Shown: positions 8,274-11,141 of the stretch, piece by piece | How the letters are laid out: each line of letters starts with the position of its first letter | Position numbering within the stretch: position 1 is the stretch's first letter | Origin: Patescibacteria group bacterium | GTDB taxonomy: Bacteria; Patescibacteriota; Minisyncoccia; Phycocordibacterales; Phycocordibacteraceae | Assembly: GCA_040384725.1 (NCBI GenBank) | Contig: JAZKIS010000002.1 | Coordinates: forward strand, 7,682-71,681 | Direction: 5' to 3' | Length of the DNA stretch: 64,000 nucleotides | Translations under genes and position numbers: made by a program | Notes under the pieces: model-generated | What the model was told of the DNA's origin: nothing | The model's input: the letters and a program-made list of their open reading frames with translations, nothing else | The model's database searches: none

Positions 8274-11141
8274 ATGGCGAAAGAACGGTTCGATCACATT
8301 GCGATTGAGAAGTCCGCCCAGGAGAAATGGGAGGCGCTCGATATCTACGCAACGGATCTAACCGACTCCGAAAAAGAATCGTATTACCTACTGTTCGAGT
8401 TCCCGTACCCTTCGGGAGATCTCCATATCGGCCACTGGTTCGCGTTTGCCCTTACGGACATATTCGCGCGCTTCAAGCGCATGCAAGGGAAGAACATATT
8501 CTTCCCGATGGGATTCGATTCCTTCGGTCTTCCGGCCGAGAACGCCGCCATAAAGAACGGTGCGGATCCGGCCGTGTGGACCGAGGCGAACATGGAGCGC
8601 ATGCGCGCGCAGGTACGGACGATGGGAACCTCGGTAGATTGGTCCAAGGAAGTCGTGACGTCGAGCCCTGAGTACTACAAGTGGACCCAGTGGCTCTTCT
8701 CGAAGCTCTATGACCACGGACTCACGTACCGCAAGGAAGCGGCCGTTAAGTGGTGCCCGAAGGACCAGACCGTGCTCGCGAACGAGCAGGTAATCGACGG
8801 CAGGTGCGAGCGCTGCGATTCTGAGGTTGAGGAGAAGTTCCTCACCCAGTGGTTCATGGGAATCACAAAGTATGCGGAGCGCCTCCTTACGGACCTCGAT
8901 CCGCTTCCGTGGCGCGAAGAGATCAAGGACGCACAGCGCGCATGGATAGGAAAGTCAGAAGGCGCGAAGCTCTCCTTCCGTGTCCTCTTTGCAGACGACC
9001 AGAAGAACGAGTGGCGTGACGAGGAGGGAAATCCGGCTCAGGTTGCCGTATTCACTACGAGGCCTGATACCACCTTCGGAGCAACGTATGTCGTGCTCGC
9101 TCCCGAGCATCCATGGGTAGCGGGAGCGCTTGAGCACGGCACTGACGTATTTTCAAACGAGGAAGAGGTCCGTGCGTATATACAGGAGACGTCGAAGAAG
9201 ACCGAGCGTGAGCGCCTCGAGAACAAGGAGAAGACCGGCGTGAAGCTCGAAGGCGTCCGTGCCGTTAACCCAGCAACCAAGGAAGAAATCCCGGTCTATA
9301 TCGCTGACTACGTGCTTGCGTCCTATGGAACGGGTGCGGTTATGGCAGTACCGGCCCATGACGAGCGCGATTATGCGTTCGCGAAGAGGTTCAACCTCCC
9401 TGTTACGCCTGTTATCGATCCGGTCACCGGGGACGAGCAGGAGGACCCGCTCCATAAAGGAAAGATCGTCGCTGTCGTTGAGCATGAAGGGAGGGTGCTC
9501 TCGATACACTGGAAGCCAGAGCTCGGCGGCCGGCTTCTCGTGGGCGGCACGGTCGAAGAAGACGAGGACCCTGCCGTAACGGCTGCACGGGAGATTACGG
9601 AAGAGACCGGCTATACCGATCTCGAGCTCGTGGAGCGTGCCGAGGAGATGGTGCATCACGGGTATTTCGCCTTCTCGAAGAATCAGGCGACCCTCGCGCA
9701 TACCACGCTCCTCCACTTCAGGTTGAACAGCGACGCGTGTGACGAGCAGAAGCTCGAAGACAACGAGAAAGGAAAGTTCGAGGTCGAGTGGGTTACGGTC
9801 GAAGAGGCGGAACGCGAGATCCATGACGACCAGCATCTCTATGCGCTCGCGCGCTTTATGAAGCCAGGTGCCTACGTAGGAGACGGCCTCCTACGGAATT
9901 CCGGCCAGTTCGATGGCAGGGATAACCGCGAAGCGATGAGCGAGATCGTCGACTTCGTCGGAGGCGAACGCGTCACGAACTATCGGCTCCGTGACTGGCT
10001 CGTCTCTCGTCAGCGCTACTGGGGCTGCCCGATACCGGTCGTCTACGACCCTGAAGGCGCCGTACACCTGATCCCGTCCGAGCATCTCCCGTGGACCCTG
10101 CCAACGGATGTCGACTTCTCGCCGTCAGCAGAGTCTCCGCTCGCGACCTCGAAGGAGCTCAAGGAGCGCGTCGAGCGCATCTTCGGCGAAGGATGGACCC
10201 CTGAATACGATACGCTCGATACCTTCGTCGATTCTTCGTGGTATTTCCTACGCTATCTCGACGCAAACGACGAGAACGACTTCTCGGACCAGTCGCTTCT
10301 GAAGAAGTGGCTCCCGGTTAATCGGTACTCAGGGGGCAGCGAGCACACGACCATGCACCTGCTGTATTCGCGCTTCTTCCATAAGGCGCTCTACGACCTC
10401 GCGCTCGTGCCGACGCCCGAGCCGTTCGAAGAACGCTTCAATCGCGGACTCATCCTCGGCACCGATGGGCAGAAGATGTCGAAGCGCTGGGGCAACATCG
10501 TCAATCCGGACGAGATGGTCCAGAAATTCGGTTCCGATGCGGTGCGCATGTATCTCGCCTTCATCGGTCCATATAACGAACCGGGGAGCTATCCGTGGAA
10601 GCTTGATGGTGCGGTGGCGATGCGAAAGTTCCTCGACCGCGTCTTCCAGCTCTCAGAGAAGGTTGCGGACGAAGCAATGACCGAGAGCGAGCGAGTGTCG
10701 CTCGCAAAGGCCATAAAGAAGATAACGGGAGATACCGAGCGCTTTAAGTTCAATACGGCCATATCAGGACACATGGTGTTGGTTCGCGAGCTCGAGAATG
10801 CTGACGTCGTCTCAAAGGAAGCGTACCTCGCTCTCGTATCGCTTATGGCGCCGTTCGCTCCGCACCTTGCAGAGCATCTATGGGAGCGGATGGGGGGCGA
10901 GGGTAGCGTGCATACTGCTTCATGGCCGGAAGAGATCGCTGTTGAGGAGGATACCGTCGTTATAGGGGTACAGGTGAACGGGAAGCGAAGGGGGGAGATC
11001 AGCCTTGCTAAGGGCGCCTCAGAGGAGAAGGCCATGGAGGCGGCGAAAGCCGATGAGACCATTGGCCGCCTCCTTCATGAAGGCGTCCTGGACAAGGTGG
11101 TCTACGTTCCAGGCCGGATCCTGAACCTGGTGATAACATGA
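8274..11141 (+). CDS. leuS: leucyl-tRNA synthetase with an inserted NUDIX hydrolase domain
   Basis: HIGH-type motif ([12 protein letters not shown]), CP1 editing motif [12 protein letters not shown], KMSKR; 955 aa with ~130 extra residues carrying a perfect Nudix box [24 protein letters not shown]. Confidence 0.95.
   Translation: [955 protein letters not shown]

Follow-up and report, generated by a model that had tools for sequence, protein, structure and literature searches.

Leucyl-tRNA synthetase (LeuRS) is among the best-studied aminoacyl-tRNA synthetases, and its CP1 editing domain is the target of the benzoxaborole drugs. The described bacterial enzymes (TIGR00396; Thermus thermophilus 1H3N, Escherichia coli 3ZGZ/4AQ7) carry the HIGH and KMSK signatures, the editing motifs TTRPDT and PAHDxRD, and anticodon-binding and C-terminal domains. 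The same motifs and domains were found in the LeuRS encoded by the leuS gene in a stretch of 64,000 nucleotides from a Patescibacteria group bacterium (NCBI GenBank assembly GCA_040384725.1, contig JAZKIS010000002.1, positions 7,682 to 71,681). This whole stretch is called the window below, and all positions in it are counted from its first nucleotide. However, in contrast with T. thermophilus LeuRS, the window enzyme carries a Nudix hydrolase domain of about 138 residues at T. thermophilus positions 374-376, inside CP1, and is without the leucine-specific domain (T. thermophilus ~580-638).

Several other described systems resemble parts of this arrangement. The minimal Nudix hydrolases of diadenosine tetraphosphate (Ap4A), such as Aquifex aq_158 (3I7U) and the Lupinus enzyme (1F3Y), share with the insert the alpha/beta/alpha fold, the size, a full Nudix box and the X-loop Tyr, but they are free proteins, whereas the insert is embedded and has a signature of its own (W413, K469, E498-x3-F-x3-W and H521). 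An IleRS with an N-acetyltransferase domain (NCBIfam NF040702), likened here by its listed family only, is also a class Ia synthetase with a second, unrelated catalytic domain; it differs in both host and guest fold, and the window LeuRS reached 70.6 bits against its cutoff of 1999, through the common class Ia core. In mycobacterial MutT1/Rv2985 a Nudix domain is paired with a histidine phosphatase, much as relatives of the window enzyme pair theirs with a HAD domain or a neighbouring His_Phos_1 domain. However, MutT1 is a stand-alone end-to-end fusion, not nested in a synthetase, and is 20-22% identical to the insert. A 2026 census of domain insertions described PF13603, the family that CP1 matches, as insertion-exclusive, with all 213 events in synthetase hosts and none in which it was itself the host (PMC13114784). 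As in that census, CP1 is inserted here in the synthetase Rossmann fold; unlike in the census, PF13603 hosts a Nudix domain, sometimes also a HAD domain or an alpha/beta-hydrolase, and PF13603 with Nudix also occurs outside synthetases. The LeuRS-Nudix family thus contradicts both statements, that PF13603 is never a host and that it always lies within a synthetase.

In the searchable literature, which covers subscription journals thinly so that absence is not proof, no LeuRS with a Nudix insert was described. The large review of the Nudix clan leaves tRNA synthetases unmentioned (PMC5389931), and the accessible part of a beta-grasp/Nudix survey names them once, unconnected with Nudix. The original prediction, which had been made from the nucleotide sequence and knew of no such LeuRS, was therefore right as far as this literature goes. 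It was not right for the databases, in which hundreds of these sequences are already public with precomputed Pfam matches; what is new is the recognition and the biology, not the data. The family shows that CP1 is able to host a second conserved catalytic domain, and, within an essential Patescibacteria gene, it is a natural experiment in how domains come to be nested and cassettes exchanged.

A Nudix domain nested in the CP1 domain of LeuRS

The leuS gene is a single long open reading frame (ORF) on the forward strand (8274..11141) that encodes 955 residues. The product reached 868.3 bits on TIGR00396 (leuS_bact), whose cutoff is 548.4, with the match divided into three stretches by the insert, and it matched the Pfam families tRNA-synt_1, tRNA-synt_1_2, Anticodon_1 and PF13603. 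It was collinear with T. thermophilus LeuRS (1h3n) over the full length (E=1.6e-186), which agrees with the proposal that the host is LeuRS. The class I signature HIGH (aa 51-54, 8424..8435) was invariant across a 55-sequence alignment, as were K734, M735, S736 and K737 of KMSKR, the local form of the KMSKS signature (aa 734-738, 10473..10487). The part of CP1 that lies N-terminal of the insert (aa 222-391, 8937..9446) matched positions 1-150 of the 185 in the PF13603 profile (E=4.7e-54). It contains an intact Thr-rich editing motif, TTRPDT (aa 261-266, 9054..9071), and the editing-site motif PAHDERD with both conserved Asp residues (aa 360-366, 9351..9371), in which H362, D363 and D366 were invariant in the same alignment. 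The corresponding editing residues of the E. coli enzyme are presumably T247-T252, D342 and D345. Among eight embedded LeuRS-Nudix proteins compared, all kept TTR.DT, with the Pro replaced by Cys in two and by Ala in one, and all retained GTGAxMAVPAHDxRD. The leucine-specific domain is absent from the window LeuRS, since residues 730 to 735 (10461-10490) span T. thermophilus 580 to 638 in the 1h3n alignment; this domain is an accessory feature that is not universal, so its absence leaves the TIGR00396 membership unaffected. The window protein is a bona fide complete bacterial-type LeuRS with aminoacylation and editing motifs intact and, judged from these motifs, the host enzyme looks fully functional.

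The insert is a Nudix hydrolase domain of type A, one of two types found at this site, and occupies aa 395-532 (9456..9869). PF00293 covered aa 399-523 when the whole protein was scanned (E=2.4e-12, 47.5 bits, gathering score 21.1), and the insert segment scanned alone gave E=3.7e-14 and 53.3 bits. In the alignment with 1h3n, residues 4-394 corresponded to T. thermophilus 2-374 and residues 533-730 to 376-580, and about 138 extra residues stand in place of a surface turn of one or two residues, close to the 130 or so that had been estimated. The interval 9455-9870 that had been given for the insert located it correctly but started one base out of frame. The insert breaks the PF13603 profile at about position 150 of 185; the remainder of CP1 follows it (aa 533-570, 9870..9983, aligning to T. 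thermophilus LeuRS from 376), and the 14-residue CP1 return strand comes directly after (9984-10025, forward strand). The domain had been placed at the C-terminal hinge of CP1. It does lie in the C-terminal third of CP1, between the two conserved segments that had been quoted, but about 38 residues ahead of the return strand, and so near the hinge and not strictly at it. The insert begins with DPVTGDEQ and finishes with KPGAYVGDG, and its GC content (0.58-0.60) is the same as that of its flanks. The Nudix domain is thus nested three deep, being a Nudix in CP1 in a Rossmann fold. An antisense ORF of 227 aa (9153-9836, reverse strand) overlaps the Nudix-coding part and was taken as a shadow ORF of GC-rich coding DNA.

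The Nudix box, of 23 residues (aa 425-447, 9546..9614), matches G-x5-E-x7-R-E-U-x-E-E-x-G-U strictly. It is followed by a ten-residue X-loop (aa 460-469, 9651..9680) with Tyr464, 17 residues past the box, and Lys469. The C-terminal Nudix elements E498, F502 and W506 (in EKGKFEVEW) and H521 (9765..9836) were all 100% conserved over 70 sequences. A full-length AlphaFold2 model was built from the 55-sequence alignment. Its mean predicted local distance difference test score (pLDDT) was 83.6, every ten-residue block of aa 381-540 scored at least 83, and the domain was flanked by two short strands (aa 381-386 and 538-540); the model suggests that a short two-stranded stalk joins the Nudix domain to CP1. 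The model of the domain alone had a pLDDT of 92.1 and a predicted TM score (pTM) of 0.84. A Foldseek search of the Protein Data Bank (PDB) with this model gave 512 matches at E<=1e-3, and all 50 of the matches listed were Nudix proteins, 12-24% identical to the insert. The top superposition was with the Aquifex Ap4A hydrolase 3i7u (TM score 0.73/0.82, root-mean-square deviation 2.5 A, 18% identity), and the other best ones were with an Enterococcus faecalis MutT/Nudix protein and RppH (12-14% identity to RppH). Ranked by E-value, Thermus ADP-ribose pyrophosphatase and mycobacterial MutT1 came top; nucleoside triphosphate (NTP) pyrophosphohydrolases and Rv2985, deposited as a 'Nudix diadenosine polyphosphatase' (9cxx), were also among the matches.

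A chance match is excluded by these E-values and by the recurrence of the domain in hundreds of independent assemblies, and it is virtually certain that the insert is a Nudix domain, complete and with a canonical box as had been predicted. The possibility that a leucine-specific or ZN domain had been misread as Nudix was rejected, since the insert is in the wrong position for it and the leucine-specific domain, which would be near aa 730, is absent.

Conservation, exchange and release of the module

The identical protein is present at NCBI (P0156, from a 211 kb contig). All but one of the 120 closest relatives (~59-100% identity) contained PF00293, and relatives at 60-90% identity occur on contigs as long as 795 kb. 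When one genome per GTDB species was scanned with a single peptide pattern, EETGY[TK][DN]L[EK], 319 loci were confirmed in 319 species genomes. These are labelled Paceibacterota/Parcubacteria and Saccharibacteria/Saccharimonadia, plus Bacilli, Mollicutes and Bacillota gut metagenome-assembled genomes. LeuRS ORFs were taken from 79 of 80 retained loci, and the strict Nudix box was present in all 79 at a constant offset from the PAHD motif; the retrieval pattern constrains no more than the final residues of the box, so that G-x5-E-x7-RE is evidence free of this bias. The insert with short flanks was also the query of an exhaustive HMMER search against 1.84 billion representatives, which returned 208 clusters at E<=1e-3, and 114 of the 150 listed were LeuRS or LeuRS fragments. 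LeuRS-Nudix is therefore widespread in Patescibacteria and some reduced Bacillota. Type A LeuRS-Nudix was also seen in Bacillota-labelled gut genomes (a subset of loci L034-L080; for example L066, Candidatus Faecenecus gallistercoris), with LeuRS bodies about 0.42 identical to the window protein, about as distant as the Saccharimonadia ones; either a horizontal move of the entire gene or wrongly labelled bins may account for this.

An artefact has a negligible probability, whether it came from chimeric assembly or binning, from a neighbouring gene read through a frameshift, or from a selfish insert of the intein kind. Metagenome-assembled genomes do yield chimeras, and one was met here; however, the ORF is continuous, the GC content uniform, the NCBI protein identical, and relatives occur in independent assemblies, 319 species genomes being reached by one pattern alone. 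An assembly chimera, the objection raised with the original prediction, was rejected on these grounds and on that of a syntenic relative described below. An intein or mobile element was also rejected: reading of the sequence gave no intein-like junction residues or homing-endonuclease features, there were no meaningful repeats, and all of the insert is Nudix fold. No mobile-element hallmarks flank the insert, where repeats were short, imperfect and at chance level. The chimera that was met is P0006 (L001 564-1526), in which the N-terminal part of a LeuRS CP1-Nudix continues in frame, from within the Nudix domain, into a ClpB_D2-small tail; it lies close to the end of its contig and was set aside as an apparent assembly chimera.

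Many LeuRS-Nudix proteins, P0156 included, are named merely 'class I tRNA ligase family protein' by the NCBI pipeline (for P0156, 'class I tRNA ligase family protein [Patescibacteria group bacterium]'), whereas the relative without it, P0235, carries the name 'leucine--tRNA ligase'. Automatic naming seems to suffer from the insert, and the family flags a systematic weakness of annotation.

Compared with the window protein, 70 near-full-length sequences had a mean identity of 0.49 in the insert, 0.52 in the catalytic core, 0.57 in the editing domain and 0.39 in the C-terminal part. Residues W413, G418, G424, G425, E431, R439, E440, E443-Y447, L450, E498, F502, W506 and H521 were 100% conserved, K469 97% and Y464 92%. 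Purifying selection on the Nudix module is as strong as that on the enzyme core.

The module is also exchanged. The LeuRS P0167 (locus L082) is 80% identical to the window LeuRS overall, more than 90% outside the insert and about 31% in it; its insert is of type B, and the two loci are syntenic (MgtC, DUF5671, LeuS, the sigma70_r4 protein and DUF8128). Protein identity was 0.85-1.0 in nearly all 20-residue windows outside aa ~367-537 and 0.05-0.6 inside, while DNA identity was ~0.85 outside and 0.28-0.6 inside. The exchangeable cassette (aa 367-537, 9372..9884, forward strand) thus comprises the Nudix domain with about 14 upstream and about 5 downstream LeuRS residues. Judged from these alignments, a cassette was swapped by recombination, so that one protein has type A and the other type B at a common site in an orthologous gene. 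An ancestor with A and B in tandem, from which the lineages lost different copies, is a less likely explanation; tandem forms do exist, but the roughly 14 residues of LeuRS proper upstream of the Nudix domain have diverged too (7/14 identical, compared with ~95% elsewhere). Over 2,415 sequence pairs, identity in the insert and in the body correlated with a Pearson coefficient of 0.65, and discordant pairs occurred in both directions: L017 and the L005-L014 group were 0.47 identical in the body and 0.75 in the insert, and L024 and L075 were 0.73 in the body and 0.31 in the insert.

Copies and partners of the domain also vary. At least 13 representatives contained two or three Nudix domains (including P0013, P0014, P0048, P0020, P0023, P0025, P0043, P0111 and P0138), with up to two before CP1 and one after, or two after. 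The strict box was missing from some of these copies (present in 0/2 in P0138 and 1/2 in P0020), and the box-less copies may be pseudo-enzyme partners. In P0157 (1176 aa, 91% identical), an extra module of ~220 aa lies immediately upstream of the Nudix domain, at the equivalent of window aa ~372 to 376; it is HAD_2 (PF13419, 27.2 bits, above the gathering score) with a DFDGV motif, and makes a HAD-Nudix tandem within CP1. P0261 and P0034 (LeuRS of ~1120 aa) carry an alpha/beta (serine) hydrolase with a GHSxG motif at the N-terminal CP1 hairpin, in the pre-CP1 hinge (window-equivalent aa ~240-255, nt ~8990-9040), and a Nudix domain after CP1. Domain clustering gave one radiation, in which the same sub-families occur before CP1, after CP1, in free CP1+Nudix proteins and as free Nudix genes. 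A scan of viral contigs gave only weak, partial, generic Nudix-box matches and no close viral relatives. The Nudix module is therefore evolutionarily modular: it is swapped, lost, duplicated, found at either CP1 hinge, joined by other hydrolases, or released with a reduced CP1.

The released form was found in nine CP1-like+Nudix proteins (P0002, P0003, P0019, P0106, P0107, P0117, P0135, P0142 and P0150) of 273-308 aa, with a Met start, a natural end and a shortened CP1. PF13603 and PF00293 were both above thresholds in the three scanned. Four of the nine were placed on contigs (P0003, P0107, P0142 and context; L104-L107), where they were independent genes of ~280-308 aa (L105 44-970, L106 688-1614, L107 2384-3223 and L104 1269-2171) with unrelated neighbours: a 2-hydroxyacid dehydrogenase and a radical SAM gene, DegV and DUF1836, or another Nudix gene and an ASCH gene. 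CP1+Nudix is thus an autonomous unit. Among the nine, the Thr-rich motif was lost in eight, the first editing Asp was lost in eight, and the second Asp was kept in six, but the Nudix box was fully intact in seven; P0106 had one Glu changed to Lys, and P0107 had Ser for a conserved Thr. The editing motifs have decayed and the Nudix box has been kept, and therefore the role of the Nudix domain is independent of editing catalysis. Judged by its lost motifs, the free CP1 is probably not a deacylase. These proteins resemble the trans-editing factors (AlaX, YbaK/ProXp, ThrRS-ed and DTD) in that an editing fold is released from a synthetase. Unlike in those factors, the CP1 is shortened, its editing motifs are mostly gone, and Nudix is always attached. 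A free-standing CP1 is not among the editing enzymes in the accessible part of a 2024 review (PMC11295145), and no natural free-standing CP1 paralog was found in the searchable literature. At L104 1269-2604, the CP1-Nudix gene does not yield the database protein under table 11 and the adjacent Nudix ORF has an in-frame stop, which points to a reassigned UGA, and so to an alternative genetic code, in the organism concerned.

Contig positions were also obtained for five free single-domain Nudix relatives. P0016 is flanked by TsaD and a ValRS-like gene, P0145 starts 13 bp after ArgRS and ahead of an IleRS-like gene with a His_Phos_1 insert, P0129 is upstream of a tRNA_SAD (ThrRS/AlaX-type) protein, P0127 is near dnaA and dnaN, and P0152 is between PRTase-like and dNK/TMK-like genes. 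The P0145 locus (L085 1-12498, Logan SRR36607724) is dense and same-strand, with four free Nudix genes including P0145. Its IleRS-like gene (1184 aa) has His_Phos_1 inserted at aa 523-675 (E=1.4e-30), and the locus also holds a dNK/TMK-like kinase, a weak Zeta_toxin-like match, dUTPase, ITPase (NTPase_I-T), PNPOx and an MBL hydrolase. A homolog search with P0016 returned only itself and one weak match.

Candidate functions of the Nudix module

The Nudix domain is very probably catalytically active, since the strict box was found at 79/79 loci and E431, R439, E440, E443, E444, E498, F502, W506 and H521 were all completely conserved. The conserved metal-ligand glutamates predict a Mg2+-dependent pyrophosphohydrolase, and the consistent acidity of the domains suggests that it acts on a small nucleotide substrate: the mean net charge was -7.6 for type A (isoelectric point 5.4) and -8 to -14 for type B, and residue for residue the domains exceed the rest of LeuRS in acidity, which argues against a large RNA-binding surface. 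We lean towards a genuine functional tie of the Nudix domain to CP1 or to synthetase chemistry, because of the free CP1+Nudix proteins, the adjacency of free relatives to synthetase genes, and the presence of the same sub-families at both CP1 hinges.

Synthesis of Ap4A by aminoacyl-tRNA synthetases is well known, and the dinucleoside polyphosphates (Ap(n)A) are by-products of the aminoacyl-adenylate reacting with ATP or ADP. In the reading that we favour, to which we give an overall probability of about 0.4 and in which the substrate is no more than a best guess, the Nudix domain would act as a unit with the CP1 fold without depending on editing catalysis. Synthetase by-products (Ap4A, Ap3A and related adenylylated compounds) would arise from aminoacyl-AMP and ATP or ADP, and the Nudix domain would cleave them to AMP and ATP or ADP near their source. 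The organisms with LeuRS-Nudix are probably without other clearance enzymes. Clearance of Ap(n)A or another synthetase by-product in cis, if it does occur, would tie aminoacylation to the turnover of a dinucleotide alarmone, the first such hard-wired link, and would offer a one-polypeptide system for asking how much Ap4A a synthetase makes and why cells remove it.

That Ap(n)A is the main substrate is, taken by itself, a tentative proposal and rather a doubtful one; hydrolysis of Ap4A in cis had also been suggested with the original prediction. The X-loop about 17 residues past the box is known to determine specificity, and Ap(n)A hydrolases are marked by a Tyr in it (PMC5389931); the marker has been given as a conserved X-loop Tyr some 16-18 residues downstream of the box (Dunn et al. 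1999, summarised in PMC5389931). Y464 (+17, 92% conserved) agrees with it, and the top superposition with the Aquifex Ap4A hydrolase leans the same way. A 20-sequence type-A profile gave weak matches in the PDB, with the uncharacterised Nudix protein 3fcm first, the Lupinus Ap4A hydrolase 1f3y (27.6 bits) next and the best characterised match, and then NUDX1, Dcp2, AvrM14 and NudB; across phmmer and profile searches of the PDB, E-values were at least 8e-6 and families were mixed. Filing the insert as an Ap4A hydrolase was rejected, since it was below every curated Ap(n)A/RppH-type family cutoff.

Several observations count against the favoured reading. The X-loop Tyr is a weak predictor. The NCBIfam Nudix equivalogs were all far under their cutoffs (NudB 27.6 bits against 103, RppH 21.2 against 116), and ADP-ribose pyrophosphatase, MutT1, NudB, RppH and Dcp2 scored about equally, which gives no subfamily assignment. 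Three of the five free relatives adjoin synthetase genes (binomial P 0.001-0.009 at a background of 5-10%), but the sample is small, and the other two are in nucleotide-salvage or replication-origin contexts. To our knowledge LeuRS is a poor producer of Ap4A and ArgRS makes none, so the adjacency to ArgRS fits badly. Unrelated hydrolases stand in the same loops (HAD_2, the alpha/beta-hydrolase, and His_Phos_1 in the IleRS-like gene), and the CP1 hydrolase site could simply be permissive. Finally, the Paceibacterota LeuRS P0235, at 74-79% identity to that of the window, is cleanly without the insert and has a short loop there; the insert is thus dispensable in some lineages.

These last points lead to the most serious alternative, which we nevertheless regard as rather unlikely: the domain would be a generic sanitiser of the nucleotide pool or of metabolites (NTP pyrophosphohydrolase-, MutT-, NudB- or ADP-ribose-pyrophosphatase-like) that, in bacteria with reduced genomes, landed in a structurally permissive loop of CP1, within a gene that is essential and constitutively expressed, the fusion providing co-expression and stability without a mechanistic link to leucylation or editing. 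The variety of hydrolase folds in these loops (P0157, P0261, P0034 and the IleRS-like protein) and the clean absence in so close a relative as P0235 would fit it, as would the location of free relatives beside dNK/TMK-like kinases, dUTPase, ITPase and a PRTase-like gene, the acidic and minimal domain, the E-value-ranked fold matches to ADP-ribose pyrophosphatase, MutT1 and NTP pyrophosphohydrolases, and the fact that no second Nudix gene was found within the 64 kb window. However, a passive landing pad is hard to square with free CP1+Nudix proteins that mostly keep the box as the editing site decays. The hosts, moreover, are LeuRS (8/8 of the long representatives scanned with Pfam, and 114 of the 150 listed clusters), not assorted essential proteins, three of the five free relatives adjoin synthetase genes, and the insert is constrained as much as the catalytic core. 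Further from these data is a module without catalysis, which would sense a nucleotide, mediate dimerisation or act as a structural spacer and so modulate the movement of CP1. There are known pseudo-Nudix regulators (PMC5389931), and the box-less copies in P0138 and P0020 would suit such a role, but a full box in 79/79 single-copy versions and an E498 conserved in all 70 sequences compared are not expected of a spacer, and we consider this highly improbable. The same holds for an extra proofreading activity, the second role suggested with the original prediction, in which the Nudix domain would hydrolyse mis-activated aminoacyl-adenylates leaving the synthetic site (pre-transfer editing). The Nudix domain does sit on the editing domain, and structural work on T. 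thermophilus LeuRS reportedly found pre-transfer analogues bound by CP1. However, an aminoacyl-AMP is an acyl-phosphate and not a diphosphate, which is chemically atypical for Nudix, and we know of no Nudix enzyme that uses it; the post-transfer editing site is fully intact in embedded LeuRS and leaves no gap to fill, the editing motifs are lost where CP1+Nudix is free, and free relatives also adjoin ArgRS, which releases no adenylate without tRNA.

It is unlikely, though less so than either of these two, that the module is directed at RNA, with CP1 capturing the acceptor (CCA) end of tRNA or another RNA end and presenting it to the Nudix domain for removal of a pyrophosphate-linked group (a 5' triphosphate, an NAD or Np4A cap, a 3'-pyrophosphate or a nucleotidyl adduct). 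The natural ligand of CP1 is the tRNA 3' end. CP1+Nudix outlasts editing catalysis, with the second editing Asp still in six of nine free proteins; the decapping enzymes RppH, Dcp2 and AvrM14 are among the structural and profile matches; P0016 sits between TsaD and a ValRS-like gene, a gene for the RNA-binding ASCH domain is near one free CP1-Nudix gene, and the swapping of cassettes recalls conflict genes. On the other side, the Nudix domains are strongly acidic with no basic RNA-binding surface apparent, RppH and Dcp2 are no closer than small-molecule Nudix enzymes, there are no close viral relatives, and mature tRNA 5' ends are monophosphates. A further reading, improbable in our judgement, is that CP1+Nudix is a dedicated surveillance and repair module for the tRNA acceptor end, in which CP1, whether or not it still edits, grips the CCA end and the Nudix domain removes a pyrophosphate-linked lesion. 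Candidate lesions would be a 3'-pyrophosphate on tRNA or a nucleotidyl or ADP-ribosyl adduct, and the function would be immunity or repair in an arms race; toxic RelA/SpoT-homologue enzymes are said to put a 3'-pyrophosphate on tRNA, in work by Kurata et al. in 2021. Such a role would explain the swapping, the two or three copies, the other hydrolases at the same hinges and the free CP1+Nudix with a decayed editing site, and tRNA repair or immunity would gain a new class if the Nudix domain does act on tRNA ends; the acidity of the domains and a viral-contig scan without a phage link weigh on it.

Genes around leuS

The leuS gene is preceded by an MgtC-like gene (6744-7256) and a DUF5671 membrane protein gene (7287-8264). 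It is followed by a gene for a Lys/Ala-rich sigma70_r4/HARE-HTH protein (11190-12281) and a DUF8128 gene (12327-13730). A single tRNA (56173-56255) was the sole Rfam match at the gathering threshold in the whole window.

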